From contig CAYTDO010000003.1 of NCBI GenBank assembly GCA_964436645.1, positions 939 through 64,938 on the forward strand: a DNA stretch of 64,000 bases, written 5' to 3'. Shown here piece after piece: positions 5,015 through 55,406 of this stretch; position 1 is the first letter of the stretch, and each line of letters begins with the position of its first letter. Origin of the DNA: an uncultured Methanosarcinales archaeon (GTDB lineage Archaea > Nanobdellota > Nanobdellia > Woesearchaeales > GW2011-AR4). The position numbers were made by a program, and so were the translations under genes. A model generated the notes under the pieces. The model did not search any database and was not told the origin of the DNA. It saw only the letters and a list, made by a program, of their open reading frames with translations.

Positions 5015-5734
5015 ATGAACAGAAAGACCAAAAAATTTGCCAAGAGAATATGGCATTTCATATGGGAGGATGACAGCGCCTGGAGCTGGATTGTTAACAT
5101 AGCCCTGGCTTTTATACTTATCAAGTTTGTAGTTTATCCTGGCCTTGCCTTTGTTCTTGGAACAAGCCACCCCGTTGTTGCAGTGGTTTCAAGCAGCATG
5201 GAGCATAACAGCATTAAATCCTGCGCAAACAATGGCATCAAGGATGTGCTTAGCGGGAATGCCGGCAAATGTGAATCGTATAAATTCACTATGTGCGGCA
5301 ATGTTTATGATGAAAAAAAGAATTTTAGCTTGGATGAATACTGGCAGGAATGCGGAGCATGGTATGAAAATTTAGATATTTCCAAAGAAGAATTTTTGAT
5401 TTTTCCATATAAGAATGGATTTAACAAGGGAGACATCATGGTTTTGAAAGGGGTTGAACCAGAAAAAATTTCTCAAGGAGACATACTGGTTTTCTTCAGC
5501 AACAGGAATGACCCAATAATTCATAGGGTTGTAAGCAAAAACGAAAGTAATGGGGGGATCATCATACATACGAAAGGAGATAATAATGAGGGTTCTATAA
5601 AAAGCAGCGCGCTTGATGAGACCAGGATTAATGAGGATGCAGTTATAGGTAAGGCAGTAATCAGGATTCCCCTTCTCGGCTATATCAAAATATGGTTTGT
5701 CGATGTGCTAAGATTTCTTGGTTTTCCTATTTAG
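5015..5734 (+). CDS. signal peptidase I (archaeal/eukaryal Sec11-type, S26 family)
   Basis: N-terminal TM anchor, then a catalytic Ser motif SSSMEH, box GDIMVLKG, and ...IIHRVV...HTKGDNN, typical of archaeal type I signal peptidases. Confidence 0.65.
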   Translation: MNRKTKKFAKRIWHFIWEDDSAWSWIVNIALAFILIKFVVYPGLAFVLGTSHPVVAVVSSSMEHNSIKSCANNGIKDVLSGNAGKCESYKFTMCGNVYDEKKNFSLDEYWQECGAWYENLDISKEEFLIFPYKNGFNKGDIMVLKGVEPEKISQGDILVFFSNRNDPIIHRVVSKNESNGGIIIHTKGDNNEGSIKSSALDETRINEDAVIGKAVIRIPLLGYIKIWFVDVLRFLGFPI

Positions 5735-7157: not shown

Positions 7158-8531
7158 GTGTTTGATTCGTTGGTTAGCAGATTCCCTATAATAGCAGTTT
7201 CTGGTATTTTTAGCAGCAAATATGAAGATATTGATATTTTGCCCCCTCCGCCACCCTTCCCTAAAATAAAGTCCAAGACAGAGGATGCCAAGGCGACAGA
7301 GAAAGCTGCAAAAGAAGAGCAAAGAAGGCGCAAGGAAGAAGAAAAAGCTCTCAAGCTACAGGAGAAAGATAGGCTTAGAGTAAAGGATCAGCAAAGGAAA
7401 GGGAGGAAGGAAAAGCTGTTTAATCTGCTGCATGGAGCTGGCTTAGTCAAGACTGAGGAAGAAAAGGCGCAGATTCGCAAGGAAAAGGAAAATTATAGAA
7501 ATTTTAAGCTGCAAGGAAAAAAGAAACGAGAAGAAACGTGGATAAAAGCAGAACAGGAAAGGATAGAACAAAAAGCGCTGGAAAAGCCCGGAAAAGAAAA
7601 AGCCTCAGAAAGGCTGCAAAAAGAAAAAGGAGGGCAAAAACCAGCAGATCAAATGGCCAATGAGAAAGAAAGATTAAGGCTTGAAAAGCTAGAAAAACAC
7701 GAGCAGGAGAAAAACGGGAAAAGAGAAAGGCGCGGATTGGATTTGTCTAAAATACAAACTTTAAAGATTCCAGAAAAGAAACAACTTTCCATAAAAGAGC
7801 AATTTTCCGGGCTTTTCCCAAAAATCGGCTTTGGGAGCAAGGAAGATGCTCCGGAACAGTATCCAATCATAACTAAAGAGTGGGGCATCTCTATTCCTAC
7901 TACTAGAACTAAGAAGATTAAGGGTATCCCTACACAAAATTTCCCGGAAGTGCGGGAGCTGAATTCAAAACAAAAAACAGGCTTCAAGAATTTCCCTGCA
8001 TCATCATTAAGCAAAAAGAAGGGAAAACAATTAGAGGAAGAACTTAAAGATTTAGATACGTTTAATGAAGGCAGAATCAAGACTGGAAAGAGTTTGGAGT
8101 TAAAAGATGATTGGGCAGAAAATACCAATGAGATTATTGTGGCGGAGAAAGAGATACAAGATGCTGTCGACGGCCTTAAAGCTGATGTGAAAAGGCCTTT
8201 CTTGAGCAGGATTTTCACGAAAAAGAAAAAAATCGAGACAGATGCCGGAGCTGAACCTCAAGTTGAAATGCCCCATATAATGCCAAGGACTTATGATAAA
8301 ATAGACTTTGTAGAAATGGCAGAGGCAAAGATACACAAGGCAAGGATGGCATTGATGGACTTCAATTTTGAAGATGCCAAAAGAATATATATCGAGGTGA
8401 TGGGGCTCTACAACAAAATGGAGCTTAAGGATAAGCATGATGTTTATGAAGATATAAAGGACCTGTATTATGAAAGGAAGAATGCGGAAAAGTTTGCAAA
8501 AAAAAGCAATGATATTTTAAAAAAATTCTAA
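7158..8531 (+). CDS. Lys/Glu-rich low-complexity coiled-coil protein (hypothetical)
   Basis: 457 aa. A PPPPPFP stretch is followed by about 250 aa of KEKE-type charged repeats and a more ordinary C-terminal domain. Confidence 0.45.
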   Translation: MFDSLVSRFPIIAVSGIFSSKYEDIDILPPPPPFPKIKSKTEDAKATEKAAKEEQRRRKEEEKALKLQEKDRLRVKDQQRKGRKEKLFNLLHGAGLVKTEEEKAQIRKEKENYRNFKLQGKKKREETWIKAEQERIEQKALEKPGKEKASERLQKEKGGQKPADQMANEKERLRLEKLEKHEQEKNGKRERRGLDLSKIQTLKIPEKKQLSIKEQFSGLFPKIGFGSKEDAPEQYPIITKEWGISIPTTRTKKIKGIPTQNFPEVRELNSKQKTGFKNFPASSLSKKKGKQLEEELKDLDTFNEGRIKTGKSLELKDDWAENTNEIIVAEKEIQDAVDGLKADVKRPFLSRIFTKKKKIETDAGAEPQVEMPHIMPRTYDKIDFVEMAEAKIHKARMALMDFNFEDAKRIYIEVMGLYNKMELKDKHDVYEDIKDLYYERKNAEKFAKKSNDILKKF

Positions 8532-12904: not shown

Positions 12905-13507
12905 TTATATCTCTATTATTTTTCCGTATGGGCCCGGATTTATTATTCTTGTCTTGTTTATCTTGTCTTCTTTCCCGAAGTTTTCATGCAGATGCCCGCA
13001 AATATGCAAGTCAACTTTATTTTTGGATATAAAGTTCCTTAAGGTCTTATTGCCGCAATGGCTTGTTACAATTAAATCCAGTTTTGTTCCGTATGGCGGG
13101 GCATGAGTTATAAATATTATTTTCTTAGCTTTGTTTTTCCTTATTATTTTGGCAAAGTTCTCCCCTATTCTGTAAAAGACTGGCTCTATCAAAGCAAATC
13201 CTGAGCCGCCATATCCCAAGAAGAGATATCCATTATGCCTGTATTGCTTTTTATGGATAAAGATTAAGTTTTTGTATTTTTTGCAAAGCCTTTTCATTAC
13301 GCTTCCGGTTTCATGATTTCCATGTATTAACAGTGTTTTTACGTTAAAGCTGTTTAATTTGCTTAGGATAAAATCGAGTCCGTGCTCAAATATTGTAAGG
13401 TCGCCAGCGCTTATTAATAAATCGGGCTTCTGCCTTTTTGCCTTTGACTTTATTTTTTTGAATGCTACTGAAGATAGGTGCAGATCGGTAAAGGCCAGGA
13501 GCTTCAT
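12905..13507 (-). CDS. metallophosphoesterase (calcineurin-like phosphoesterase)
   Basis: Motifs AFTDLH, ISAGDL, IHGNHE, GHLHE. Confidence 0.75.
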   Translation of the reverse strand: MKLLAFTDLHLSSVAFKKIKSKAKRQKPDLLISAGDLTIFEHGLDFILSKLNSFNVKTLLIHGNHETGSVMKRLCKKYKNLIFIHKKQYRHNGYLFLGYGGSGFALIEPVFYRIGENFAKIIRKNKAKKIIFITHAPPYGTKLDLIVTSHCGNKTLRNFISKNKVDLHICGHLHENFGKEDKINKTRIINPGPYGKIIEI

Positions 13508-14589: not shown

Positions 14590-15819
14590 TCAAACCGAAT
14601 AATAATCCTCCAGCACAACCCTATCCACATTCTCAACATCTTTTACAACATAAAGCCTTCCGTGGCCCAATTCAACAAGCTTCTCAGCAAACTTCTTTCC
14701 TTTTTCGTTTAGGTTTATCCCAATTAAGGATATTGTAATGCCTTTGTTCCTGGCTACAGAAGCTTCTTTTAATGCATCTTCTTCCGGGGATTCTCCAGTT
14801 GTAGGCAAGGCATCTGTTATAAGTATCAGATGTTTTGTGACGTCTTCATTCGGAAATATTTCAATTGCTTTTCTTAAAGTAGATACTAAATCCGTTTCCC
14901 TGGAAGCCTTGGCCATAGTAATGCTTCTCAAAAGGTAAGCGAAATCGTGGGTTGGCTCTACTACTGTTCTGATTTCCGAGCCAAAAACTATCAAGCCTAC
15001 TTTGTCCCTTTCGCTTATTGCCTTGTAGGCCAGCGCAATTCCGGCGCGCTTGCATGCATCTATCTTGTTTCCTTTCATGCTTCCGGAGGAGTCTAAGGCG
15101 TAAATAATGTAGCTTTGGCCCCTTGATTGGCGCTCAAAAACCCTAAGGTCTTGCTCCTCCAACGATTTATGGCCTCTTCTTATCGCAACTTTTACGGATT
15201 GCTTTATTGCTATGTCCTTGTAACGGTCGCCTTTCTTGTAAAATTTTGTATCTTCCTTTGCGCCATAGGCGGAGATTTTTTTATGCAGCTTCTCGCCGAA
15301 AAGCCCTTTGGGAGTTATCTTATCAAGCTCCTCAAAATACATGACTAAAGAAGCTAATTCAATCCCTTTTTCTGTTATAAAACCGTCTTTACTGAGCAGG
15401 CCGTCTTCTTTTAACTTTTCCGTGGTTTTTTCAATCTTGAATTTGAGCTCTCTTTGAAATTCAGGAATTGTAATATTTTTCTTTATGTAGTCTGGATTGT
15501 AGCCAGTAGCTAATTTCAATAATGAAGGCCCGTAAATATGCTCGGCCATCGAATAATTCCTTACCATCTGCTGGTACATCAGGTCAGGAGTAAAAGAATT
15601 AAGGCCTTGGTTTATAGAATCACGAAGCAGCTTTCCCTTGTCTATAGCATCCTTATCATTCTCAAGAACTGAGTGCATCAGTTTTTTTTCTTCCTGCTGG
15701 GAAGAAAGTTTTCCAGTCAGCTCCTCTACAAAATCTTTTTCACTAATGTCCTGCTGCCTGTCAAAGTAAATCGCCACTTTTATCTTCTGAAAGCTCACTC
15801 CCAGATATATTCTTCTCAA
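14590..15819 (-). CDS. von Willebrand factor A (VWA) domain protein, partner of the adjacent MoxR-like ATPase
   Basis: MIDAS-containing VWA core YIIYALDSSGSMKGNKIDACKRAG...LIVFGSE. The first ATG overlaps the upstream ATPase by about 58 nt, so the true start may be internal. Confidence 0.65.
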   Translation of the reverse strand: MRRIYLGVSFQKIKVAIYFDRQQDISEKDFVEELTGKLSSQQEEKKLMHSVLENDKDAIDKGKLLRDSINQGLNSFTPDLMYQQMVRNYSMAEHIYGPSLLKLATGYNPDYIKKNITIPEFQRELKFKIEKTTEKLKEDGLLSKDGFITEKGIELASLVMYFEELDKITPKGLFGEKLHKKISAYGAKEDTKFYKKGDRYKDIAIKQSVKVAIRRGHKSLEEQDLRVFERQSRGQSYIIYALDSSGSMKGNKIDACKRAGIALAYKAISERDKVGLIVFGSEIRTVVEPTHDFAYLLRSITMAKASRETDLVSTLRKAIEIFPNEDVTKHLILITDALPTTGESPEEDALKEASVARNKGITISLIGINLNEKGKKFAEKLVELGHGRLYVVKDVENVDRVVLEDYYSV

Positions 15820-16693
15820 ATTGCATCCTGATATAATCTTCAGGTGTTTGCAGGTATTTTATAGAAGGCTTTAATCTTATCCTATGCGCTAGTACAGAGA
15901 TAACTGCGCCTTTCACGTCTTCAAGACTTACTGTTTTTCTTCCCCTTAACAGGGCATTTGATTGCGATCTTTCGTATAATCCCAGAGACGCCCTTACAGA
16001 TGGTTTTTTCTCAAGATTTTTGTCTTCTCTTAACATTCGTACAAAGTATATCATTGCTGTCAGGAGCTTATCGCCTATGCTTATGCCATCCAATTTTATG
16101 CCTTTTTTTGCCACAATCTGCTTTTCAAAATCTATTGTTTCAGGATAATGCATGTATACTAAATCAAACCTGTCTAATAAAACATCAGAAAGTTTCTCTG
16201 TTGAGGTATCTTCAGGGTTCATTGTTCCTATAAATATTAAGTCAATGTCAAAGTCAACATCATAGCTGCCAATAGTTGCTTTTTTTTCCTCTAAAACCTG
16301 CAATAAAGAGTTTTGGACTTTTTCAGGGCACCTGTTTAATTCGTCAAAAAACAAAATGCCTTTATCAGCTTTGAATATTTTTCCCTTGGTAAAGGCTTCA
16401 ATGCTTAAAGGGCCGTATTTTAATGCCTTAATCGGATCTATGTCGCCCAATAAGTCCTCAACAGTTAAGTCCGGGCTTCCCTGGACCCTGACAAAGGGAG
16501 TTTTTTTGCCAAGAATATCTGCAACATTTTTTGCCAATGTTGTCTTTCCTATTCCGGGAGAGCCTACAAGGATTATATGCCTTCCCGCCAATAATGCGGA
16601 TTTTACAGATTCCTTTACTGAATCCTGGCCTATTATGTCAGGGAAAGATTCTTTTTGGTCCAATAATGATTTTGCCAGGTCTTTTGATATCAT
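15761..16693 (-). CDS. AAA+ ATPase, MoxR / ChlI-BchI family
   Basis: Walker A ILVGSPGIGKTTLAK, Walker B ILFFDELNRC, sensor motifs, and the MoxR-type C-terminus. Confidence 0.8.
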   Translation of the reverse strand: MISKDLAKSLLDQKESFPDIIGQDSVKESVKSALLAGRHIILVGSPGIGKTTLAKNVADILGKKTPFVRVQGSPDLTVEDLLGDIDPIKALKYGPLSIEAFTKGKIFKADKGILFFDELNRCPEKVQNSLLQVLEEKKATIGSYDVDFDIDLIFIGTMNPEDTSTEKLSDVLLDRFDLVYMHYPETIDFEKQIVAKKGIKLDGISIGDKLLTAMIYFVRMLREDKNLEKKPSVRASLGLYERSQSNALLRGRKTVSLEDVKGAVISVLAHRIRLKPSIKYLQTPEDYIRMQFEKNISGSELSEDKSGDLL

Positions 16694-17628: not shown

Positions 17629-18795
17629 TTAGAAAAGCCTCAAAAACCAGATAGTGGCGCCTGCTACCAAAGGTATCACCAGATTGTCATCAACTTCCTC
17701 TGCTCCAATCTTTAACTCGATGCCTTCTGCAATCATAGCTATTAATGATGCTATTAATGCTTCAGTCCATGATACAAAAAATAATGCGCCTAAAAATCCT
17801 GCAAGTATCCCTGCAATAGTTCCTTCTATGAATTTTTTGTCTGTCAGGGGATGCTTTATCTTGCCGAACTTCACTCCAAATATATGGCTGGTAGAGTCTC
17901 CAAGCGCAAGAATAATTATAGAGGCCAATGCTATATCTGGGGGAAACAACATTATTGATAAAAATGCGCCAACCAGGTAGAATAAAAGCCCTTTTGCGAC
18001 AAAGCCCTTGAGATGCTTTTCCCTCTCGAACACTGTAAGCATCGGATATATTATTGGCAGACGGTACTTTTTGCTGAACATCGAAAGCATGATGACTGCG
18101 ATTATCAAAAATACCAATTCAATTTTTCCAAGAACTTTTAGTTTTATCAGTGCTACCAGAACTATTCCCAGGACAGTATGGAAAGCCTTGCGCCTGAATT
18201 CAAATTCCTTTATCATCATTTCAAATTCTTTCGGAGTCATCGATTCTTTCTTCTCTTCCAAGTATATCATGAAAGCTCCTATAAAATAACCAAAGAGCGC
18301 TCCTGCAACTATGTCGCTAAAATAATGAAGGCCCAAATATAATCTGCTGGAGGAATATAACAAAGCGAAGGAAATCCATGCAATTTTAAGCCTTGGCAGG
18401 CTTTTATTTAGTATAGCCAATATGGAAAATGCAGCCATTGCATGCATGCTGGGGAAGGAATAGCTGATTATGTTCAAGAAAGTGTATAAAATTTCGCCGG
18501 ACGGCCTGGGGCGCAATACAATCAGCTTCAATAAGAAGGCTAAAACTAAAGAGATTATGAATGATGCCCATAAATATCCAACCCATTTTCTTTTTTTGCT
18601 GTCGAAAAAAAGCAATATTGTTGCGATGCCCATTACTGCTGCCATGACTGCTGGATTGGTGATTATGCCAAAAGCTGCATCAAAAAATGAATTGTTAATG
18701 TAGGATGCCAGATTAAAGGCATATTCATCCAAGAATAAAGATATGATTATGCCCAGCGAGACTGCAATCAATACCAGGGTATTTCTTTTTTCCAT
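17629..18795 (-). CDS. polytopic membrane protein: N-terminal PAP2 phosphatase domain fused to a C-terminal dolichol-kinase / CTP-transferase-like domain
   Basis: PAP2 motifs LRPRP (KX6RP), SFPSMHA (PSGH) and SSSRLYLGLHYFSDIV (SRX5HX3D). The C-terminal half (GDSTSHIFGVKFGKIKHPL...KFIEGTIAG) resembles dolichol kinase / CarS-type CTP-dependent enzymes. Confidence 0.55.
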   Translation of the reverse strand: MEKRNTLVLIAVSLGIIISLFLDEYAFNLASYINNSFFDAAFGIITNPAVMAAVMGIATILLFFDSKKRKWVGYLWASFIISLVLAFLLKLIVLRPRPSGEILYTFLNIISYSFPSMHAMAAFSILAILNKSLPRLKIAWISFALLYSSSRLYLGLHYFSDIVAGALFGYFIGAFMIYLEEKKESMTPKEFEMMIKEFEFRRKAFHTVLGIVLVALIKLKVLGKIELVFLIIAVIMLSMFSKKYRLPIIYPMLTVFEREKHLKGFVAKGLLFYLVGAFLSIMLFPPDIALASIIILALGDSTSHIFGVKFGKIKHPLTDKKFIEGTIAGILAGFLGALFFVSWTEALIASLIAMIAEGIELKIGAEEVDDNLVIPLVAGATIWFLRLF

Positions 18796-18808: not shown

Positions 18809-19840
18809 TTATTCAACATCATTACTTATTTTTCCGGTTATTTTTTTACCTGGCCATATCTTGCAGCCAGGCATTATGGCCACATTTTCTGCTTTTACGT
18901 TATCTCCTATAATAGCTCCGAGAGTTCCTGCCGATATTGATTTTCCTTTTATTACGGAAACTGCATTATTTTTTGCTTTGGCTGTGCCTTTGAAATAAAC
19001 ATTTTCTCCAATTATGGAATTTTCTATTACTGAGTTTTTTTCTATGATTGAGTTGTCCATGATTATTGAGTTTTTAATGCTGCCCTTTATCCTGCAATTT
19101 TTTCCAATAGATGAATTTTCAGCCTCTCCGGAAATTTCTGAGCTGCTTTCAATTGAATTTTTCCCGTTTCTTATTTCCCTATCAGCTTCCAATAAATCCC
19201 AGGGGTAGCTTATCTGCAGGCATGAGGAGCTGTGGACGCAATGCACACTGCCACGATTAGCAAGATGCCTTATTGCGTCGGTTATCTCGTATTCATTCCT
19301 TTCTGATTTTTTCAGTTTCTTAAGAAGCTCGAATATTTTTTTATCTAATGAGTATAAGGCGCAGCTTGCTAAATCTGAAGGAGGATTTTTTGGCTTCTCC
19401 ATGATATTTTTTACCAGGCCATTTTTTTCAATGATAACGCCAAAAATCTCAGGGTTTTTTACTTTTTTTGCCAAGATTGAATATTTATGCTTTGAAACTT
19501 CTTTTATGTCTTGTTTTGAATAAATATTATCACCCATAAGGAGAAGGAACCTGCCATTGATGTGCTTCTCTAAGATTGAAACTGCATGGCCAGTCCCAAG
19601 CTGCTCTTTTTGCTCAATAAGCTTTATATTCAGGTTTTTGCAGTTTTCTTTGACGAACTTTTCCATCATCTCTTTTTTGTAGCCCACAACAATGATTATT
19701 TCGCCTGATACTTCTTTTAGGGCTTCAAGGTTATATTCAAGGATGGTTTTGTTTGCCGCCTTAAGCAGCGGCTTGGGCCTTGTCAAAGTCAAAGGGAATG
19801 TCCTTGTTGAGCTTCCTGCCGCAAGAATCACGGATTGCAT
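18809..19840 (-). CDS. sugar-1-phosphate nucleotidyltransferase with a C-terminal left-handed beta-helix (GlmU-like bifunctional architecture)
   Basis: N-terminal ILAAGSSTRTFPLTLTRPKPLL (GxGTR-type). The C-terminus has many hexapeptide repeats (IGKNCRIKGSIKNSIIMDNSIIEKNSVIENSIIG...). Confidence 0.7.
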   Translation of the reverse strand: MQSVILAAGSSTRTFPLTLTRPKPLLKAANKTILEYNLEALKEVSGEIIIVVGYKKEMMEKFVKENCKNLNIKLIEQKEQLGTGHAVSILEKHINGRFLLLMGDNIYSKQDIKEVSKHKYSILAKKVKNPEIFGVIIEKNGLVKNIMEKPKNPPSDLASCALYSLDKKIFELLKKLKKSERNEYEITDAIRHLANRGSVHCVHSSSCLQISYPWDLLEADREIRNGKNSIESSSEISGEAENSSIGKNCRIKGSIKNSIIMDNSIIEKNSVIENSIIGENVYFKGTAKAKNNAVSVIKGKSISAGTLGAIIGDNVKAENVAIMPGCKIWPGKKITGKISNDVE

Positions 19841-21091
19841 TCACATCAACTCTATTTTTTTAACATTGTCTTTAATATTGGCTGTCTTGAACAGATTTTT
19901 AAGAAATGACTCTGCATCTGCAAAGGGGCGGTTTTCAAGGGCATATACTTTGTTGCTTTTCATGAAAGTTTTTTTGTGCTTTTTCCTGAAAAAATCTACA
20001 TGCATCTTCATTTTCAGGGGAGGGCCTTGCAGCTCTATTGCCTTTGAAAGGTTTTTGCTTTCAAGGGCATAGTACAGCAAAGAGCTGCTTTTTCCGTTCC
20101 AAATCATATTGCTTTCAATTATTTTAAAGCCGTAATCTAAAAATTTTTGCTGAATAAAATTAAATGCCTTCAGCATCTTTGCTCCAGCTACATCATCTTT
20201 TTTATCTAAAGGAAATGCCATGATTAAAATTAAATTCTTTCCAAATTTTCCCCTTAAATCCTGCTCTGATGCATGCCTGATTTCAAAAAATTCCTTTGAG
20301 GGTTTTTTCATGAATTCCCTTGCCCTTTGCTTCAAGAGCTCGAATTTTTCGCCGTCAAGAGCAGCAGATGCATTCCTGTCTTTTTGCACAGGATCTATCA
20401 GGATTAATGGGCTGACAAGCTTCGATTTATTCAGCTCCATAAGGATGTTTTTTCCCTTATGGGAATTTTTAGGGTCAATTATCTCCTTGCCTTTCCATTG
20501 GGATGATGCTTTTATCAGGTTACGGAAAGAGCCGTAATGTATTGTCAATATCTCGCAGACATATCCGGAGAATCCTTTTATGTAACTTTCAGCGCCATAG
20601 ACTCTTGCAGCCTTGAAGAACTGCTTTGCAAGCCTCATCTCGTCAATGAGCTTCTTGTGCTTTAGGACAAAATCTGCATGCAAAGGGCTTACATCAGTTA
20701 TGTTTTTTGCTTCCTCTGCTTTTTTAATTTCCAGGATTGGCACGATCTCAAAAGTAAAATCCTCCTGCCTTATCTGAAAATAATCTCTTGAACCGTGCAA
20801 TCTTGTTATCTTGAAATGCTTCTTTAGGAATTTTTCGAGAATTTCTGAGAGCTGAGAGTCCTTGTTTTTGTATTTCGCATAATTGAATTTGACAAAAATG
20901 TCAGCATCAAATGATTTTAGCCATGTTCCTTTCGCTCCAGAGCCCCCAAGGATTGCTTTTGCATCTTTTATTCCTTTGTTTATTGCTTTGATTATTTTGG
21001 AAGCTTTTTCAAGTATTTCCTGCTCATATCCTTTGTTGGGCCTTATGTCTTCCAGCACTTCTGAAAGAAGGTTTTTCATGTCGTTTTGCAT
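19841..21091 (-). CDS. cca: CCA-adding tRNA nucleotidyltransferase, archaeal class I
   Basis: GGSGAKGTWLKSFDADIFV matches the archaeal Cca GS...GT...D.D motif. Size 416 aa. Confidence 0.8.
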   Translation of the reverse strand: MQNDMKNLLSEVLEDIRPNKGYEQEILEKASKIIKAINKGIKDAKAILGGSGAKGTWLKSFDADIFVKFNYAKYKNKDSQLSEILEKFLKKHFKITRLHGSRDYFQIRQEDFTFEIVPILEIKKAEEAKNITDVSPLHADFVLKHKKLIDEMRLAKQFFKAARVYGAESYIKGFSGYVCEILTIHYGSFRNLIKASSQWKGKEIIDPKNSHKGKNILMELNKSKLVSPLILIDPVQKDRNASAALDGEKFELLKQRAREFMKKPSKEFFEIRHASEQDLRGKFGKNLILIMAFPLDKKDDVAGAKMLKAFNFIQQKFLDYGFKIIESNMIWNGKSSSLLYYALESKNLSKAIELQGPPLKMKMHVDFFRKKHKKTFMKSNKVYALENRPFADAESFLKNLFKTANIKDNVKKIELM

Positions 21092-27280: not shown

Positions 27281-28117
27281 ATGGCAGAATCAATCAAAGA
27301 ATTAAGGAAGATATGCTATGAAGGCTCGGACAAGAAAAGGCCCTTGTATATGGAGCTTTTTACCATGAAGGTTTCCATCTATGTGACTAAGCTATTGATT
27401 TATACTCCAATCCATGCTGACCAGGTAACTATGCTTATGGTGCTGCTTGCAATTATAGGCTCCGGAATGATGGCTTTTGGCAGCATCTGGACGATGTTTA
27501 TCGGGATAACTATAATACATTTTACAGTGGTTTTAGATAATGTAAACGGGGAAGTTGCAAGGTACAGGAAGGAGGGGAGCCTGATGGGGACTTTCCTTGA
27601 GGAGTTTTACCATACACTGTCGATTCCATTTATTTTTTTCTCATTGGGCTATGGAATTTTCAACCAGACCGGGATAAAATATGCACTTATATCTGGATTT
27701 TTGGCTGCAATATTTGCCAGCCCTATCGTGCTTACTTCAATAAAGACTGCGGTTGTGAAAAAGGGAATGGACAGGCTTAAAGCCAAAAAAGGGATGCTGC
27801 CCAAGAAATATACTATGCTTAAATCGGCAATCAATGTGAAAGGGGGAAGCACAGAAACTGGAAGGGAGCTTTATTCTCTGTATGATAATATAAAAGAGTT
27901 ATGGGGATTTCCTTTCAATATACTGCACATCCAGATAGTTTTGGCTTTGGAATTAGCCAATTACTATTATCATTTTATGCCTGCGTTTATTTTATCATTA
28001 ATTTACATTATTTTGTATGGATCGGTTTCGGTTTTGAGGCAGATAATATCTTTTGTTGTGCATTACAAAGGAAAGACCGTTTTCCATTACTATAACGCAT
28101 TATTTAATAAAAAATAA
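27281..28117 (+). CDS. membrane protein, divergent CDP-alcohol phosphatidyltransferase-like
   Basis: Multi-TM protein with LDNVNGEVARYRKEGSLMGTFLEEFYH. This resembles the D-x2-DG-x2-AR-x8-G-x3-G-x3-D-x3-D motif but has N/E/H substitutions. Confidence 0.35.
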   Translation: MAESIKELRKICYEGSDKKRPLYMELFTMKVSIYVTKLLIYTPIHADQVTMLMVLLAIIGSGMMAFGSIWTMFIGITIIHFTVVLDNVNGEVARYRKEGSLMGTFLEEFYHTLSIPFIFFSLGYGIFNQTGIKYALISGFLAAIFASPIVLTSIKTAVVKKGMDRLKAKKGMLPKKYTMLKSAINVKGGSTETGRELYSLYDNIKELWGFPFNILHIQIVLALELANYYYHFMPAFILSLIYIILYGSVSVLRQIISFVVHYKGKTVFHYYNALFNKK

Positions 28118-28190: not shown

Positions 28191-29612
28191 ATGAATACAG
28201 CAAGAAGATTAACTGCAAATTTTTTGGTCCTTGCATTCTCTGAGTTCTTTTCTAAGGCAATGCAGCTGGTGGTTTTTGTTTACATTGCAAGAATCCTTGG
28301 GAAAGAAAGCTTCGGCCTTTTCAGTTTTGGGCTTGCTTTTGGGCTGTTAGCAGCTATAATCGCGGACTTTGGATTGAGCTCCCTGATTGTAAGGGAGATA
28401 AGCAGGAGCAGGAAAGACGCGGAAAAATATCTTTCCAATGCTATTGCAATAAAAATTGCGCTTTCACTAATCACTGTAGGCTTATCTTTTCTGATATTAA
28501 ATATAATTGGCTATGGCAGCCAGGAAAAAACTATTGCATATGTGATGCTAGCTTTCGCAATATTGCAGACTTTTACAGACATCTATTGCTCGATATTCAG
28601 GGCATTTGAGCGGATGCACTATGATGCGTCAATAAAAATACTGAGGATGGTGCTGCTGGCTGGAATTGTATTTTTTGCTCTTAGCGGCAATTCTTCTTTG
28701 GTAACTTTATCCTCATCTTTCCTTTTAGCGGAGATTATAGTTTTGGTGGTAGCTATTATATTGGTTTATTTTAAATTTGTAAAGATAAGCCTGGATTTTA
28801 ATCTTTTGTTGCTGAAAAAACTGCTTAATGAAGGGATGTTTTTTTTCCTGTCAATTGCGTTTGCAGGTCTTTTCCTGTATATTGATATAATCATGCTTTC
28901 GAAACTTGGTTCGTCATCTGAGGTTGGAGTTTATGCCGCTGCATCAAATATAGTCCTTGCATTGCTTTCAATACCTATGATGTATGGGAATGCAATTTAT
29001 CCGGTTATATCACGATTTTACATAAATTCTAAAGAAAGCCTAAGGTTTGTTTACGAGCGCTCGTTCAAGTACATGCTCATCCTTGGAATTGCAGTTTCAG
29101 CAGGAATTTTCGCAACTTCAGATAAAATAATAGGGGTTTTTTATGGAAGTGAATACGCAGCTTCTGCAATTGTGTTGTCAATAATAGCCTGGCAATTATG
29201 CCTCAGGTTCCCAAATATCATATCTGGAGTGACTTTATCTTCGACAGACAAGCAGCGCTCCAGGGTTTTAAGCCAGGGGCTCATTGTACTGGTAAAAGTG
29301 GCGCTTAATTTGCTGCTTATACCCATATATGGAATCGTAGGCGCTGCACTTGCGACATTGCTAACAGAAGCAGTATTTTTTGTCGCATACAACTTCTTTA
29401 TTTCAAGATATGGAATAAGGATAGACTACATAAAGCCAGTCATCAAGCCTGCAATAGCTGCATTAATCATGATAGCAGTACTTTATTTTATAGGAGATTT
29501 TTTTATTTCGGTTGTTTTGGGGGCAATTATTTACATCTCGGCAATTCTTTTATTGAAAACATTTGATGCAGAAGATAGAAAGATGATAGATAAGATAGTA
29601 AAGAATTCTTAG
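28191..29612 (+). CDS. polysaccharide/oligosaccharide flippase (Wzx-like, MOP superfamily)
   Basis: 473 aa with about 12-14 TM helices and a Wzx-like N-terminus. Confidence 0.75.
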   Translation: MNTARRLTANFLVLAFSEFFSKAMQLVVFVYIARILGKESFGLFSFGLAFGLLAAIIADFGLSSLIVREISRSRKDAEKYLSNAIAIKIALSLITVGLSFLILNIIGYGSQEKTIAYVMLAFAILQTFTDIYCSIFRAFERMHYDASIKILRMVLLAGIVFFALSGNSSLVTLSSSFLLAEIIVLVVAIILVYFKFVKISLDFNLLLLKKLLNEGMFFFLSIAFAGLFLYIDIIMLSKLGSSSEVGVYAAASNIVLALLSIPMMYGNAIYPVISRFYINSKESLRFVYERSFKYMLILGIAVSAGIFATSDKIIGVFYGSEYAASAIVLSIIAWQLCLRFPNIISGVTLSSTDKQRSRVLSQGLIVLVKVALNLLLIPIYGIVGAALATLLTEAVFFVAYNFFISRYGIRIDYIKPVIKPAIAALIMIAVLYFIGDFFISVVLGAIIYISAILLLKTFDAEDRKMIDKIVKNS

Positions 29613-38091: not shown

Positions 38092-39564
38092 TTAACCCAA
38101 AAAGCCCCTAATAAATCCCGCTCTGGCAATATTTTCCGTAAGGAGCCTGTGGTCTTTCTTTTTGAAATTATCAACTATTATAGAAGTAACTTTCTTATGC
38201 TTTTCATCTGAATCATAGATTGTCATTTTTTCCATACTTTCCACTAATTTTCGGATCTCATTTGGAAATAAAGATAGATTATCTTTGTTTAAGTATTGCA
38301 GGGAATCCCTTAAATCATTATCAAAATTGGCATAAATCTGCCGTATATAATCTAAATCTTTAGTGTCTAGAGCATTTAGCCCTAAAATTTCTGGCGGCAG
38401 CCCATAAGAGTAAAGTGCTGCGCAAAAGGTAATTGCTCTTGGTAGCTTTAGGCCTGAAACGTTCCTTGAATATCCAAAAAGACCAATATGTAATTTTCTT
38501 TTTCTCCTTGGAGGCACATAAGGAGCTAAATCATTAATGTACGTTTCTAGCAGCTTTACCTGTTTTTGGTATTCAGCTGTAAGCTTTTCCACTATTGCAA
38601 GGCATTTTTGCTCCTCTACATATATGGGTTTTTTAGGCATAGTTTCATTCAAATGCTTTACAGCCTTCTGAACCTGCCCGATATCATAATCGTACTTAAA
38701 AGCGGACTGCAATGTAAAAGTATAAACACTTGGGAATCCCGCCAAACAATTATCTATGTTGGCTGGCTTAAAATTTCCCCTGAAAGGGGAAGAGCCGCAG
38801 CCTAATATTGGCAGTATATCTGCAGAAAGCTTTTCCTGCATATCCCACAACTTTTGCAGCGCTATTTTTAGTATCAAAACAGTTGCCAAGCTTCCATAAT
38901 TCAAAGCTGGATCGCTTCTTGCCAGCCATACTCTTTGATAATCCCCGATTTTTTCTTCCTGCAAGAATTCTTGAACGATTTTATCAGCATTTAAAATTGA
39001 AGCCTTATCCTCTATCAATGGGATTACCCTAATGCTTTCAGGCTTAAAGTCCCCTATCCATTCTGCGACTGTTGTGCCATTGTGCAGATTATGGTGCTTT
39101 TTTCCGACGACATGCTTTTTGTAATATTGTGCAACCCTTATAATTTCTTTTGCATCTGTTGTCATCGGCAATGCCACTTCAAAAATAGGAGCTGCTTCCT
39201 CTCCATAAAATATTTTGGCTGCGTCAAAATTCCTCGGTATGCTCTCTAAAGTTTCTAATAAAATTTTCGCCTCGCCTTTGTCAACAGCAGGGTTTGGGAC
39301 CCTCACAGTAAGAAATATTTCCTTGCCAAGCTTATGATTGCTAAAATACGGCTCGTATTTAGTAAAGAGCTTTTTGACAACAAAATTATCAACTTCTTTT
39401 CCTTCACAATCCCACAATTGCTCCCTGCAATGAATATGGGAATATGCATAGAAAGCTTCTTTTATCTCATCGTCTCCGGAAAGTTCCGGATGGTCTGCAA
39501 AGAAGGGGGTATGCACATTATCAGGATGCTGCGTAGACATTGCTCTTGAGACATTATGATTCAT
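38092..39564 (-). CDS. ppcA: archaeal-type phosphoenolpyruvate carboxylase
   Basis: The N-terminal MSTQHPDN signature and about 490 aa are typical of PepcA. Confidence 0.85.
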   Translation of the reverse strand: MNHNVSRAMSTQHPDNVHTPFFADHPELSGDDEIKEAFYAYSHIHCREQLWDCEGKEVDNFVVKKLFTKYEPYFSNHKLGKEIFLTVRVPNPAVDKGEAKILLETLESIPRNFDAAKIFYGEEAAPIFEVALPMTTDAKEIIRVAQYYKKHVVGKKHHNLHNGTTVAEWIGDFKPESIRVIPLIEDKASILNADKIVQEFLQEEKIGDYQRVWLARSDPALNYGSLATVLILKIALQKLWDMQEKLSADILPILGCGSSPFRGNFKPANIDNCLAGFPSVYTFTLQSAFKYDYDIGQVQKAVKHLNETMPKKPIYVEEQKCLAIVEKLTAEYQKQVKLLETYINDLAPYVPPRRKRKLHIGLFGYSRNVSGLKLPRAITFCAALYSYGLPPEILGLNALDTKDLDYIRQIYANFDNDLRDSLQYLNKDNLSLFPNEIRKLVESMEKMTIYDSDEKHKKVTSIIVDNFKKKDHRLLTENIARAGFIRGFLG

Positions 39565-41878: not shown

Positions 41879-42337
41879 ATGATATGCGACATGTGCAGCG
41901 CCAAAGGGAGATTGTATAAGGTTAAAGTAGAGGGCGCTGAGCTGACTTTATGCAAGGATTGCAGCAAATTTGGGGAAGTTATCGGGCAGGTGCAGCAGGA
42001 AAGCGAGAGTTTCAATAAAAAGCAAAAAACAATAATCAATGAAGGCCCGGAATTAATAGAGATACTATCCGAGGATTACGCTGACAAAATAAAGAAGAAA
42101 AGAGAAAGCCTAGGGCTTAGCCAGAAAGATTTTGCAGAAAAGCTCAATGAGAAAGAGTCCATTATCCAAAAACTTGAGAACTGGCATCTTGAGCCTTCTA
42201 TAGATCTTGCAAAGAAAATAGAAAAGTCACTTGGACTAAAAATTTTGGAGCAGTATGAAGAAAAGCATGAGAAGCAGAACAATAAAGGGAGTATGGGCAC
42301 CTTTACAATAGGAGATTTCATAAAAATCAAGAAGTGA
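41879..42337 (+). CDS. mbf1: archaeal multiprotein-bridging factor 1 (Zn-ribbon + HTH XRE)
   Basis: N-terminal CDMC...C..C ribbon and a C-terminal HTH (LSQKDFAEKLNEKESIIQKLE). Confidence 0.8.
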   Translation: MICDMCSAKGRLYKVKVEGAELTLCKDCSKFGEVIGQVQQESESFNKKQKTIINEGPELIEILSEDYADKIKKKRESLGLSQKDFAEKLNEKESIIQKLENWHLEPSIDLAKKIEKSLGLKILEQYEEKHEKQNNKGSMGTFTIGDFIKIKK

Positions 42338-43718
42338 AGATGCTATATTCGCAATTGCCTTCTTTCTCGCTTAACTCTGGCTTAAAATTTTTTGATAAAA
42401 AATCCTTAAATTCCTCATGCTCCATTGCGCATGCCCCTTCATAAGGCGGGCATGGCAGCAGGTCGCAGCTATTTATCAGCACATATTTTGCCTTGGTTAT
42501 TTTTCCATTTAAATCCCGAATCTTATCAGCATTATACAGCGGATAATAGATGATCTCATCTGCTTTTGAGTCGCCATAAGCTATAAATGATGGATTTGAA
42601 ATCCACAGGCCATCCTTGATATTTTGATTTTCCATGAATTTGTAGAATGGATCCAGTTTATCATCATATTTATCCAGCCTTAGCTGCGGAGCTATGCTTA
42701 AAATTCCGATAATCAATATTAAAAAAAGCGCAATTTTCCTGTATTTTCCAAAATACCCAGAAAACTTGACAATCCCATAGCCAGCCATTATTGAAAGCAA
42801 AGGCAAAATAAATATCAGAAACCTCATTTCCTTGTGGGGTGTAAAAATATGAGGGATAAATCCGGATAAGAATATTAAAGGGATAAGGGCTTGCATTTTT
42901 TTTTTGCTCCTAAAAATTAATATCATCCCCAGAATGGAGAATATTGACAAGATATTTTCCTTTGCCAGGCCTATAAAATAAAATCTAAATGGCTGATTAA
43001 ATGCCCATCCTGTAAATTTAGCCATCCATGCCTGCAATAAAAATGGGTAGAACGGGTTTTTGTAAAGTATAATGTTTAATATTAAAAATGGCAGCACTGG
43101 AATTAAAAAAAATAATAATGAGGCTACCAGCTGGTTTTTTGCGGCTTTCTTCTTATATGTTAAGTAAATAAAAAAAATGTACATTGGAGCTATAAGAAAT
43201 ATCTGGAAAAACCTTGCCATGAAAGCTAATCCTAAAATCAAGCCTCCAAGGTTATATTTTTCATTTATAAAAAAATACATGCCAAGCATGATAAAAAATG
43301 TTGATGGTATTTCTGTGAATAGTATATTATTGAAAAGAAAAAATGTCGGAAAAAACATAAGCAAAAAAGATGAGACTATAGCTGTTTTTTTTCCAAATAA
43401 TTTAGCTGCGATAGAATAAGTTAATATTACAATGCCAATCCAAAATAATAAAACTGATAATTTACCGAAAAAAATTGCGTCCAATCCTATTTTCCAGAAA
43501 AATCCCAAAATCAATGGCCAGGCTAAAGGCCTGGAAGCCTCGTACAATCCGGATTGCCCGGAGGAGTAAATGTATTTCCCCATGCCAAGATAAACAGAAG
43601 AATCCCACCATAAATCTGCATCAGCATTAAGATTATAGGCAAAAGAAAGGATAAAAAGGATTAATATTCCTATTATAGCCCCATGTTCTTTCAGTGATTT
43701 TGTTGTTAGACTATTCAT
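42327..43718 (-). CDS. GT-C-fold membrane glycosyltransferase (PMT/ArnT, GT39/GT83-like)
   Basis: About 12 TM helices and an N-terminal loop with an acidic motif (NADADLWWDSSVY), typical of GT-C enzymes. Cys-rich C-terminus CDLLPCPPYEGAC. Confidence 0.55.
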   Translation of the reverse strand: MNSLTTKSLKEHGAIIGILILFILSFAYNLNADADLWWDSSVYLGMGKYIYSSGQSGLYEASRPLAWPLILGFFWKIGLDAIFFGKLSVLLFWIGIVILTYSIAAKLFGKKTAIVSSFLLMFFPTFFLFNNILFTEIPSTFFIMLGMYFFINEKYNLGGLILGLAFMARFFQIFLIAPMYIFFIYLTYKKKAAKNQLVASLLFFLIPVLPFLILNIILYKNPFYPFLLQAWMAKFTGWAFNQPFRFYFIGLAKENILSIFSILGMILIFRSKKKMQALIPLIFLSGFIPHIFTPHKEMRFLIFILPLLSIMAGYGIVKFSGYFGKYRKIALFLILIIGILSIAPQLRLDKYDDKLDPFYKFMENQNIKDGLWISNPSFIAYGDSKADEIIYYPLYNADKIRDLNGKITKAKYVLINSCDLLPCPPYEGACAMEHEEFKDFLSKNFKPELSEKEGNCEYSIFTS

Positions 43719-44967
43719 TCTTCTTCCAAATATTGTATTGGCTTTTCCTAAAATAATCCGGCAGCATAAGAATGTAAATTGCCATTATAAGGAGCCAAAA
43801 GGGGAACATGAAGCAAATAGGTATTATATGCCATAAGTCAATTTTCCTATCAAATTTTATTATTGCCATTATAAATAACGGGTAGGATAGCAGAGTTGCT
43901 GTTATTCCTGTTATTGTTGCTGCTGTAAGGGGAGTTGCTCCGCTTATTACGCTGGCAGTCCATTTTATAAAGCCTATAATTGAGAGCCAGTCGAAGAAGA
44001 ATCTCAGCATGTCAAAGCTAAAATAAATTGATTTGGATGCAAAATAAGTTATGTAACCGGAAACTATCTGGTATATTGTAAAAGACCCCAAAATAACTGC
44101 TTGTATATAGGAAAACAAAAACAATGGCAAAGTGTAGAGGTCAATAATTTTGTTATTGAGCTGCAGGTGTTTCCTGAAGATTTTTAAAATTCCTCTTGCA
44201 AATCTTGCGCGCTGCCTCAAAAATCCCCTTATATCGGAAGGCATGTTTGTTTCTGCCACTGCTTTTTCTGAAAAACCTATCTTATAGCCTTTTCTTATCA
44301 GCCTTATAGCAACATCAATATCCTCAGAAAATCCCTGGACGCTAAAACCGCGAGCTTCGATAAGCTCTTTTTTTCTGTATATGCTTAATGGGCCAGGGGT
44401 CACAATGTTTGCATTTATTTTTGAGAGAAGCAATCTCATCAATGAGTTATAAAGCTGCTCAATATGCACCCACATGCATATGAATTTTTTCCTGTTCTTT
44501 ACTTTTATAACTCCGGTTGCAGCCGCTATATTTTCGCGCTCAACTTCTTCCTTCAGTTCATTCAATGCATTCTTGTGGATTATACTATCTCCGTCAACCA
44601 CTGCAATAAGGTCTCCTTTTGAAATCAATAATGCTTTGTTTAAAGAAGAGGCTTTTCCGGAATGAACCGTTTTAATTAGCTCAATATTTGGCTTGTATCT
44701 TAATGCAATTTCGTAAGTCTTGTCTTTACTGCCATCATCGACAACAATTATTTGCCTGTCTCCATTGAAATCTGCATTTAAAACTGATTCTATTGCATCC
44801 GCAATATATTTTTCCTCATTGTGGGCTGGTATTATTATGGTTATACTTGAGAATTCATGCTCTTTTGCTGGCTTTTTTATTTTTATAAATATTAGGGCAT
44901 AGTAGGAAATTATAGTTATTAAAAATATGAAAGTAATCAAAGCCGGCAGATATTCTAAAAGAGCCAT
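43711..44967 (-). CDS. family 2 glycosyltransferase with a C-terminal multi-TM domain
   Basis: IIIPAHNEEKYI...IVVDDGSKDKT...DGDS (DXD), followed by TM helices. Confidence 0.8.
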   Translation of the reverse strand: MALLEYLPALITFIFLITIISYYALIFIKIKKPAKEHEFSSITIIIPAHNEEKYIADAIESVLNADFNGDRQIIVVDDGSKDKTYEIALRYKPNIELIKTVHSGKASSLNKALLISKGDLIAVVDGDSIIHKNALNELKEEVERENIAAATGVIKVKNRKKFICMWVHIEQLYNSLMRLLLSKINANIVTPGPLSIYRKKELIEARGFSVQGFSEDIDVAIRLIRKGYKIGFSEKAVAETNMPSDIRGFLRQRARFARGILKIFRKHLQLNNKIIDLYTLPLFLFSYIQAVILGSFTIYQIVSGYITYFASKSIYFSFDMLRFFFDWLSIIGFIKWTASVISGATPLTAATITGITATLLSYPLFIMAIIKFDRKIDLWHIIPICFMFPFWLLIMAIYILMLPDYFRKSQYNIWKKNE

Positions 44968-45050
44968 TTAAATCATAGTAGGGATATGGGTTAGAATTCT
45001 TATATATTGCGGTTAAATTTAGAAAATTAAAATATTTATCAAAAACTATA

Positions 45051-45158
45051 GGAAATAACTTCAATATTTGTATGTCAAAATATTTGTAAAGTTATTTCCT
45101 AATAAGCAAATCACTCATTAAGGATGGGGCAAAATTTCTATTATTAAAGTGATTTGCT
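45051..45158. other. two 11-bp inverted-repeat pairs (ggaaataactt/aagttatttcc; agcaaatcact/agtgatttgct) in the spacer between two GT2 genes
   Basis: Seen directly in the sequence. The second pair brackets the stop codon of the upstream GT2 gene. Possible terminators or operators. Confidence 0.3.
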
Positions 45159-46400
45159 ATAAACAAGCTTTGAATTTGCCTGTTTCGGGGTGCAGAACCA
45201 GGAGAGCTGCTGCTTGGAAGCTGCCTTAAAGAATGCTATGCTGTTCGCAACAGCAAGGACAAGCCCTATTGTAAGAGATGTAAGGATTAAGTAAGGCAAT
45301 TCCTTGAGCAGCCTATTTTTGTAAAAAGTCATTGTTCCGATAACAAGAAAACCGGCTGTGAGAGAGAATCTTACTGCCATGTCCACTAAATCGCTGAAGC
45401 TAAAAAGCTTAGGATCTCCTAAAAACCAGCCGCTGAAGCCAGCTATCGTCATGATAAAGACAAAAGGAGCAATTATATTCCCCAAAGTGATATAGAGGAT
45501 CATCACTCTTTGCTTAAAGGTAATGCCTTTCTTGAGGAGTATCTTAAATGCGTTGTCGAAAAAAACACGGGCATTGCCATAACACCATCTCATCTGCTGT
45601 TTTATGAAGCTTTCAAAAGTAGCAGGAACTTCGCTTGGAGTCTCAAAATTAAGATAAACGGTCTTATATCCCTTAAGCAGCAGATTAACTGTCAAATCCG
45701 AGTCTTCTGTCAAACTATTAAGGTTCCATCCACCTACTTTCTCAAATGCTGATTTTCTTATTGCCCCGGCAGTTCCGCAGAAAAATACGCAGTTTATCCT
45801 ATTATTAATAGGCATGATAATTGTATGGTAAATCATCAAAAGGTAGGAAGCGCTCCTTGTTATTAAATTTGAGTCTTTATTGTAAAAGCCCTGCCTTGTC
45901 TGGACAATAGCGACTTTTGGATCAGAAAAAGGCTTTATGACTTTAGCCAGGAAATCTTTTTGAGGCATCCAGTCAGAATCAAATATCACAATAAATTCCC
46001 CTTTGGCATGCTTCATGCTGTTTTTCAATGCCCCTGCCTTGAAACCTTGCCTATGGCCTCTATGAACATATTTTACAAATCCTGGATTTTGTTCGGCAAA
46101 TTTTGCTAATATATGCTGTGTTTCAATATGAGTGCTGTCATCTGCAATAATTATCTTATACTTATCCTTAGGATAATCGAAGTCAATGCAGTGCCTTATG
46201 CATCTCTCTGCAATAGGATCATTGTATGTAGGTATCTGAACTGTTATAAATGGAAGCTTTTTAAGCTCTTTGAATTCTTTCTTCTCTTGTTTATACAACA
46301 GGAGATTAAGGAGGGCAAGCATCATAAATAGGACCGAGAAAAAAACTATGGGAAGTAAAGTAAGGTTATAAACAAATAATGCGATGTCTTGCGGTGCCAT
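45144..46400 (-). CDS. processive family 2 glycosyltransferase (cellulose/chitin/hyaluronan-synthase-like)
   Basis: VQIPTYNDP, DDSTH, FDSDW (DXD) and QQMRWCYG (QxxRW), flanked by TM helices. Confidence 0.8.
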   Translation of the reverse strand: MAPQDIALFVYNLTLLPIVFFSVLFMMLALLNLLLYKQEKKEFKELKKLPFITVQIPTYNDPIAERCIRHCIDFDYPKDKYKIIIADDSTHIETQHILAKFAEQNPGFVKYVHRGHRQGFKAGALKNSMKHAKGEFIVIFDSDWMPQKDFLAKVIKPFSDPKVAIVQTRQGFYNKDSNLITRSASYLLMIYHTIIMPINNRINCVFFCGTAGAIRKSAFEKVGGWNLNSLTEDSDLTVNLLLKGYKTVYLNFETPSEVPATFESFIKQQMRWCYGNARVFFDNAFKILLKKGITFKQRVMILYITLGNIIAPFVFIMTIAGFSGWFLGDPKLFSFSDLVDMAVRFSLTAGFLVIGTMTFYKNRLLKELPYLILTSLTIGLVLAVANSIAFFKAASKQQLSWFCTPKQANSKLVYSKSL

Positions 46401-46402
46401 TT

Positions 46403-48362: not shown

Positions 48363-48412
48363 GTATTAGAGTTATTGAATTCCTTATTTAAATGATGGGG
48401 TTTTGAGGGGGT

Positions 48413-55388: not shown

Positions 55389-55406
55389 ATCCTTTTTTGA
55401 GGGAAA

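Follow-up and report, generated by a model that had tools for sequence, protein, structure and literature searches.

The dolichol kinases of eukaryotes (Sec59, DOLK, AtDOK1) are polytopic membrane proteins of about 500 amino acids (aa) with 13–15 transmembrane (TM) helices, and the eukaryotic dolichyl-diphosphate phosphatase (Cwh8/DOLPP1) is a protein separate from the kinase. In Gram-positive bacteria, polyprenol is re-phosphorylated to the carrier monophosphate by a DgkA-type undecaprenol kinase, an enzyme of unrelated fold that uses ATP and is not fused to a phosphatase. For archaea, a survey found most members to lack dolichol-kinase homologues and the end of the pathway to be unknown (PMC5088576). 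The return of the carrier lipid across the membrane was itself only partly solved, in 2022–23, through DedA and DUF368, two unrelated families of undecaprenyl-phosphate (C55-P) translocases for which fusions to PAP2 and BacA are known (PMC9876793). Here we describe a gene in which a PAP2 phosphatase is joined to a lipid-kinase-type domain in one membrane protein, a candidate enzyme of carrier-lipid recycling. It lies on the minus strand at 17629–18795 of a 64,000-nucleotide stretch, hereafter the window, of contig CAYTDO010000003.1 (positions 939 to 64,938; assembly GCA_964436645.1), which is deposited as an uncultured Methanosarcinales archaeon and placed by GTDB in the Woesearchaeales.

Both domains come from known superfamilies, and fusions of a phosphatase to a recycling partner have precedent: in PAP2–DedA, PAP2–DUF368 and DUF368–BacA proteins (PMC9876793), as would be the case here, a carrier-lipid phosphatase is physically coupled to the next recycling step. 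There the partner is a translocase, whereas in the window it is a kinase-type domain. The PAP2–kinase architecture is not among the fusions listed by Sit et al. 2022 (PMC9876793), and the literature that we searched held neither a description of a PAP2–dolichol-kinase fusion nor anything relevant on dolichol kinase in DPANN archaea or the bacterial candidate phyla radiation (CPR). The gene and its parts, located from the list of open reading frames (ORFs), an alignment of 16 full-length fusion relatives (A1, to which our statements of invariance refer) and an AlphaFold2 (AF2) model, are:

17629–18795, minus strand: PAP2–kinase fusion ORF, 388 aa, ATG start, 13 predicted TM helices
18241–18795, minus strand: PAP2 lipid phosphatase domain, residues 1–185, 6 TM helices (Pfam, Foldseek, phmmer)
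18502–18528, minus strand: PAP2 motif C1, K-x6-R-P (KLIVLRPRP, K90–P98; regular expression and translation)
18442–18453, minus strand: PAP2 motif C2, P-S-x-H (PSMH, 115–118; regular expression and translation)
18313–18348, minus strand: PAP2 motif C3, S-R-x5-H-x3-D (SRLYLGLHYFSD, S150–D161; regular expression and translation)
18190–18249, minus strand: charged, predicted cytoplasmic linker KESMTPKEFEMMIKEFEFRR, residues 183–202, with a mean of 5.4 lysine plus arginine residues (K+R) across 16 sequences
17632–18240, minus strand: CTP-transferase-superfamily domain, most probably of dolichol/polyprenol-kinase type (CTP, cytidine triphosphate), residues 186–388, 7 TM helices
18022–18027, minus strand: invariant E257-R258, in the predicted cytoplasmic loop between kinase TM helices 2 and 3
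17821–17898, minus strand: putative CTP-binding motif D300-x6-G307-x3-G311-x8-K320-K321-x2-E324-G325 (motif match, translation)
17671–17691, minus strand: invariant acidic motif D369-D370-N371-x3-P375 (DDNLVIP), in a predicted cytoplasmic hairpin before the last TM helix

The first-pass annotation, made from the DNA alone, had read this gene as a single polypeptide. That reading holds. The ORF is one continuous frame without an internal stop, beginning 14 bp downstream of the stop of the preceding gene, and G+C content is ~37% throughout the window. Among 1.84 billion representatives of 50%-identity clusters, a full-length profile had 621 matches at E ≤ 1e-30, and ~73 of the best 150 were two-domain proteins of 340–440 aa matched end to end. 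The fusion is thus a genuine family, counting 70 or more such clusters. Its closest relatives are 58–66% identical to the window protein, include P0006 (source name Nanoarchaeota) and come from loci syntenic with Woesearchaeota and Nanoarchaeota genomes. These relatives, the shared synteny and the archaeal type of the two genes upstream point to a DPANN source for the window (Nanoarchaeota or Woesearchaeota). AF2 modeled the whole protein at a pLDDT of 83.2.

Residues 1–185 are a PAP2 lipid phosphatase domain, with all three of the motifs that the first-pass annotation had placed in the N-terminal half. PF01569 covers residues 73–182 (E = 6e-18; 65.3 bits against a gathering score of 27.2). 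K90, R97 and P98 of C1 are unchanged in 16/16 relatives, and P115, S116 and H118 of C2 (PSMH being a variant of PSGH) and R151, H157 and D161 of C3 are likewise invariant; the sole exception in the PAP2 motifs across these relatives is one S-to-G change in P0009. In a Foldseek search with the AF2 model, the best Protein Data Bank (PDB) match was Bacillus subtilis PgpB (5jki; E = 7.9e-6, TMt 0.69), with Aquifex aeolicus LpxE (6ebu; TMt 0.76) and Escherichia coli PgpB also matched by fold, and phmmer of PDB sequences placed LpxE first (E = 1e-6). The best NCBIfam match was the undecaprenyl-diphosphatase SepP (E = 4e-13), at 49.7 bits far under the 250-bit cutoff. Undecaprenyl-diphosphatase is also the source name of the nearest unfused PAP2 relatives, among which are two PAP2–DedA (VTT) fusions, P0028 and P0029. 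The domain thus resembles PgpB, BcrC, YbjG and LpxE (5jki, 6ebu, 4px7) in its three motifs, six-helix core and predicted outward-facing active site; those enzymes are single-domain, whereas the window protein adds the C-terminal kinase-like domain. A different partner was seen in P0023 (478 aa), in which a PAP2 relative is joined to a calcineurin-like metallophosphoesterase (PF00149/PF12850).

The C-terminal half is conserved as well, with polar residues invariant across the 16 relatives; its acidic motif is invariant in A1, as are D185, N186 and P190 in alignment A3. Dolichol kinases carry the CTP-binding motif DxxAxxxGxxxGx8KKTxEG, as quoted in passages of PMC5853391 and PMC13586052 that cite Shridas and Waechter 2006. 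The window sequence D300STSHIFGVKFGKIKHPLTDKKFIEG325 has identical spacing and 7/9 of the specified residues. Fifteen of the 16 fusion proteins keep this spacing, and P0016 meets the strict eukaryotic consensus. A family-profile search recovered >170 relatives at ~50% identity, mostly stand-alone Woesearchaeota proteins of ~196 aa, of which P0152, P0171 and P0175 exceed the gathering score of PF01148. Only by transitivity is the window protein linked to PF01148, through 4 of 76 close homologues (E = 1e-53 to 1e-57 against the domain profile). Many relatives are named "dolichol kinase" at their source (JGI), and P0177 is a "diacylglycerol/polyprenol kinase family protein" (NCBI). Modeled alone with a 76-sequence alignment, the domain reached a pLDDT of 94.8 and a pTM of 0.90.

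Motif spacing, PF01148 in the relatives, their kinase names and the absence of a cytidylyltransferase signature, considered below, together place residues 186–388, with good confidence, in the kinase branch of the CdsA/CarS CTP-transferase superfamily. The dolichol/polyprenol-kinase character proposed for this half in the first-pass annotation is thereby supported, the fold matches to CarS and CdsA included. A Pfam assignment, which had been suggested as a check, came out for the N-terminal half as PF01569; the C-terminal half had no match of its own, and PF01148 was reached through homologues only. Single-sequence scans of that half returned only Ac81, ThrE, DAGK_prokar and CarS, at E = 0.04–3.6. 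The unrelated transporter family that had been contemplated for it appeared only as sub-threshold ThrE matches, which, in 4/76 homologues at E ≥ 0.002 and under the gathering score, we rejected as noise. Relative to Sec59, DOLK and AtDOK1, the window domain shares the identical motif spacing on a predicted cytoplasmic loop, the polytopic membrane character and presumed alcohol phosphorylation within the CTP-transferase superfamily. It differs in its size (~200 aa and 7 TM helices), in two motif positions and in having no Pfam match of its own.

By prediction, the PAP2 site is extracellular and the kinase site cytoplasmic, so that they lie on opposite faces of the membrane, the arrangement that the first-pass annotation had asked about. 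We took helix boundaries from the AF2 model and counted K+R in the loops over the 16 aligned sequences; the mean was 22.2 for putative inner loops vs 6.3 for outer loops, and simple hydropathy agrees with this positive-inside topology. In the predicted layout, the 13 TM helices start from an inside N-terminus, the three PAP2 motifs lie outside and the linker (183–202) lies inside. The linker, in which AF2 places a short helix at 188–195, leads into an invariant E199-x2-R202-x3-H206 at the start of the kinase domain. Loop 309–323, which holds part of the CTP motif, averages 4.1 K+R and is on the same side as the linker. Predicted cytoplasmic loops or helix ends also hold E257/R258, D300, K320/K321/E324 and D369/D370/N371. 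The predicted site orientation of each half resembles that of its counterpart, bacterial PAP2 carrier-lipid phosphatases for one and human dolichol kinase for the other.

The first-pass annotation had suggested a search for the same fusion in related genomes, and the fusion was recovered from dozens of species-representative genomes of both DPANN and CPR. Among GTDB species representatives we found 247 relatives, the best 80 of which include the full fusion in archaea (Woesearchaeota, Nanoarchaeota, Pacearchaeota) and in CPR bacteria (Peregrinibacteria, Peribacteria, Gracilibacteria, "Altimarinota" and "Patescibacteria group"). Complete genomes, OY969931.1 and OZ245819.1 for example, are among the carriers. 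DnaB, YbeY and a glutamate-racemase-family gene confirm the bacterial nature of the CPR loci. At CPR loci, "C-only" labels from tblastn were traced to a diverged PAP2 probe; the proteins there are full fusions. In a neighbour-joining tree of kinase domains, calculated without support values, fused and stand-alone forms are interleaved, which hints that the PAP2 domain was repeatedly gained or lost. Neither of the two annotation pipelines, NCBI and JGI, names both domains, and Pfam misses the kinase half in ~95% of close homologues. NCBI calls members of the family "phosphatase PAP2 family protein" (P0006, P0019), and JGI calls them "dolichol kinase" (P0011, P0014, P0129).

The block around the gene is conserved in DPANN genomes, with the order CCA enzyme, sugar-1-phosphate nucleotidyltransferase, a variable slot, (PAP2–)kinase, MoxR ATPase and von Willebrand factor A (VWA) protein. 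In the window the neighbours are:

19841–21091, minus strand: archaeal CCA-adding enzyme, first gene of the block (TIGR03671, 286.8 bits, above cutoff)
18809–19840, minus strand: archaeal GlmU-like sugar-1-phosphate nucleotidylyltransferase with an LbH domain, upstream of the fusion gene (PF00483, E = 2e-33)
15761–16693, minus strand: MoxR-type AAA+ ATPase, downstream, in a conserved pair with the VWA protein (Pfam)
14590–15819, minus strand: VWA protein, downstream, in a conserved pair with MoxR (Pfam)

The nucleotidylyltransferase, which scores 258 bits against TIGR03992 (under its 292 cutoff), is probably co-transcribed with the fusion gene. In ~30 DPANN loci it precedes the fusion gene, either directly or with one gene in between, so the link to this neighbour drawn in the first-pass annotation reflects conserved synteny and not coincidence. 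The MoxR and VWA pair is directly downstream in most DPANN loci. Upstream sequence was readable at 33 DPANN fusion loci, where the slot contains:

14 of 33 loci: DedA/VTT (Pfam for 9, tblastn or similarity for 5)
1 of 33 loci: DUF368 (Pfam)
2 of 33 loci: Sm_multidrug_ex, with weak VTT similarity (Pfam)
16 of 33 loci: nothing (gap ≤160 bp)

A translocase-type or related gene (DedA, DUF368 or Sm_multidrug_ex) therefore stands directly upstream in 17/33 loci, and DedA or DUF368 also precedes stand-alone kinases at the same locus. The window has an empty slot (14-bp gap). The alternation of DedA/VTT (PF09335), DUF368 (PF04018), Sm_multidrug_ex (PF06695) and nothing can be followed at L001:6089-6721, L005:5117-5980, L008:2351-2827, L043:3514-3999 and L015:3280-3903. 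It looks like non-orthologous replacement of a polyprenyl-phosphate translocase, with Sm_multidrug_ex as a possible third translocase type.

The CPR neighbourhood is also conserved and differs from the archaeal one. There, the fusion gene overlaps the end of an Asp/Glu-racemase (MurI-like) gene, and the flanks (loci L002–L007) hold a tandem DUF881 pair, a convergent GMP synthase, DUF4012 and sometimes Wzy_C. Some genes further downstream of the fusion, a stand-alone metallophosphoesterase gene is conserved, both in the window (12905–13507, minus strand) and at related loci (L001:12039-12641 and L005:10069-10665). Many loci titled "uncultured Methanosarcinales archaeon" (L008, L009, L013, L016, L021 and others) share the Woesearchaeota/Nanoarchaeota block, and the Methanosarcinales label on those third-party-annotation metagenome-assembled genomes is probably wrong.

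The two domains are present with their catalytic motifs intact, and the fusion and its neighbourhoods are conserved; we consider it rather probable that the gene encodes a bifunctional polyprenyl-diphosphate phosphatase and polyprenol kinase for carrier-lipid recycling. The fusion thus probably regenerates the lipid on which sugars are carried out of the cell. The outside PAP2 site would hydrolyse the polyprenyl diphosphate freed by extracellular glycan transfer, and may additionally strip the last phosphate. The cytoplasmic kinase site would then phosphorylate free polyprenol or dolichol with CTP, giving the monophosphate that primes new glycan assembly. Where present, the neighbouring DedA or DUF368 protein would return polyprenyl phosphate across the membrane. 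The substrates, the use of CTP and the coupling of both halves are what we infer here. That one fusion family occurs in archaea and bacteria favours polyprenyl carriers, which are common to both, over bulk membrane lipids, which differ between them. The first-pass annotation had proposed carrier-lipid recycling for N-glycosylation in one protein; recycling stands as the best-supported reading, and "N-glycosylation" is too narrow, since no oligosaccharyltransferase is encoded in the window and bacterial members of the family adjoin a peptidoglycan-precursor gene.

Several observations weigh against this proposal. Two positions of the CTP motif deviate in the window protein (A to S and T to F), and the DxxAxxxGxxxG core is partly common to cytidylyltransferases. 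The C-terminal half of the window protein reaches no Pfam or NCBIfam threshold, with PF01148 unmatched even at E ≤ 10, and just 4/76 close homologues pass PF01148, at 25–28 bits vs 24. The fold cannot separate a kinase from a cytidylyltransferase, as no kinase of the family has a solved structure. PAP2 enzymes are promiscuous, and characterised members of the kinase family accept other alcohols too, namely diacylglycerol, phytol and farnesol. Within the 64-kb window, tblastn found no DedA or DUF368 homologue, and the oligosaccharyltransferase is missing as noted.

The empty slot bears on a possible but doubtful extension of the recycling proposal, in which the fusion, self-contained, would bring back the glycan carrier lipid without a flippase. 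The outward PAP2 site would take polyprenyl diphosphate down to uncharged polyprenol; this would pass through the bilayer of its own accord, perhaps along the surface of the protein itself, and the inward kinase would trap it as polyprenyl phosphate at the expense of CTP. The fusion could also serve the ultra-small symbionts of DPANN and CPR to capture polyprenyl lipids from the host membrane. Such a return path, or such capture, would explain why DedA and DUF368 are missing at about half of the loci, the window included, why the fusion is concentrated in DPANN and CPR, and why PAP2 was repeatedly gained or lost at one locus.

Other substrates or chemistries were considered. The fusion may instead act on glycerolipids, pairing an outer-leaflet phosphatase for phosphatidic acid, archaetidate or phosphatidylglycerophosphate (PGP) with an inner-leaflet, Dgk1-like CTP-dependent kinase for diacylglycerol (DAG) or archaeol; such a pair would remodel or import membrane lipids, for example ones scavenged from a host. 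The CTP-transferase family does include a DAG kinase that depends on CTP, yeast Dgk1 (PMC2459266), the NCBI name of P0177 includes diacylglycerol, the best structural match of the PAP2 half (5jki) is a PGP phosphatase, and some DedA proteins (PetA) flip phospholipids. We nevertheless regard this as rather unlikely. The fusion occurs both in archaea, with ether isoprenoid lipids, and in bacteria, with acyl ester lipids, which favours a shared substrate; the neighbours (sugar-1-phosphate nucleotidyltransferase, DedA/DUF368 and the CPR MurI-like gene) point to glycan and carrier-lipid metabolism; and the nearest unfused PAP2 relatives are named undecaprenyl-diphosphatase. Like yeast Dgk1 and plant VTE5/FOLK, the window domain is probably a small member of a CTP-dependent family of lipid-alcohol kinases that accept varied alcohols. 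Those enzymes are stand-alone and act on DAG or C15–C20 prenols, whereas the context in the window points to long-chain carriers.

Salvage of short-chain prenols is improbable: linkage to DedA/DUF368 and to nucleoside-diphosphate (NDP)-sugar genes fits long-chain carriers. Here a kinase half like VTE5/FOLK or the Plasmodium prenol kinase would be combined with a PAP2 half acting on farnesyl or geranylgeranyl diphosphate (FPP/GGPP), feeding or buffering the pool of isoprenoid diphosphates. Phytol and farnesol kinases do belong to the same CTP-dependent family, and the stand-alone DPANN proteins, at ~196 aa, have the small size of the phytol kinases of plants and cyanobacteria and not the ~500 aa of eukaryotic dolichol kinases. 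The predicted outward PAP2 site is, however, ill-suited to cytosolic FPP or GGPP, and in CPR the fusion adjoins a peptidoglycan-precursor gene.

Were the C-terminal half a CdsA/CarS-like cytidylyltransferase, it would form a CDP-activated lipid instead of phosphorylating an alcohol. The top fold matches of the domain, CarS (5guf) and CdsA (4q2e/4q2g), are also its only solved relatives; its best relevant NCBIfam match is the CDP-archaeol synthase CarS (NF003114), though faint at E = 1.7; one homologue matches phosphatidate cytidylyltransferase at E = 0.0017; and the DxxAxxxGxxxG core is common to this enzyme class. At the sequence level, however, profiles A2 and A3 (76-sequence profile used) found no CdsA or CarS among all PDB sequences at E ≤ 10; their matches to I-MsoI and PsbH were dismissed as chance. 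The CDP-DAG-synthase signature of PROSITE, S-x-[LIVMF]-K-R-x4-K-D-...-H-G-G-x2-D-R, and its HGGxxDR core are matched by 0/314 collected relatives. The G-x8-KK-xx-EG spacing is that of dolichol kinases and unlike that of CarS and CdsA, and independent pipelines call the relatives kinases. A cytidylyltransferase is therefore quite improbable. Finally, a false union of two neighbouring genes, whether from faulty sequencing or assembly or from a gene call extended too far, is effectively refuted, for although stand-alone kinases occupy the syntenic position in some DPANN genomes, the frame is continuous, the linker is conserved and the end-to-end matches come from independent cluster representatives, dozens of genomes and different studies.

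Beyond the block, the window encodes further glycosylation genes, and the islands to which the first-pass annotation had tied the fusion are indeed there:

28191–29612, plus strand: Wzx/MOP-type lipid-linked oligosaccharide flippase, a consumer of polyprenyl-phosphate carrier (PF01943, E = 1e-37)
42327–49759, minus strand: glycosylation cluster (Pfam)
42327–43718 and 48413–49759, minus strand: glycosyltransferase (GT) family C enzymes (PMT_2/GT22), of a family using polyprenyl-phosphate-sugar donors (Pfam)
43711–44967 and 45144–46400, minus strand: GT2 enzymes (Pfam)

Several NDP-sugar enzymes are also present. Inside the cluster, between the GT2 and Yip1/PMT_2 genes, two adjoining ORFs (46403–47856, minus strand; 236 and 248 aa) have no Pfam family at E ≤ 1e-5. 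Three further ORFs, all on the plus strand, have none at E ≤ 1e-4: 7158–8531 (457 aa), 5015–5734 (239 aa) and 27281–28117 (278 aa). At 61407–63056 (plus strand), a thiolase (PF22691/PF00108; 61929–63056) is preceded by a 165-aa ORF, and the two may be the archaeal acetoacetyl-CoA thiolase/DUF35 pair that opens the mevalonate pathway. The organism may in that case synthesise isoprenoids itself, which urges caution on the idea of a lipid auxotroph. A biotin-related cluster at 52615–61182, a considerable metabolic outlay given the small DPANN genome, comprises a carboxyltransferase (52615–54123), BioY (54810–55388), an energy-coupling factor (ECF) ATPase and T component (56316–57729), a biotin-protein ligase (58566–59285) and a biotin carboxylase (59272–61182). 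An archaeal-type phosphoenolpyruvate carboxylase lies at 38092–39564 on the minus strand (PF14010, E = 2e-184).

The enzymes that make or regenerate dolichyl phosphate in archaea are largely unidentified, and the fusion family offers a concrete candidate for the diphosphatase and the kinase in DPANN and CPR, genetically tied to known translocase families. Given that annotation names only one half of these proteins and that Pfam misses the other, carrier-lipid salvage is probably under-reported in metabolic reconstructions of these organisms. Should both halves work together as a coupled cycle, the fusion would represent a new way to move a lipid carrier across the membrane.

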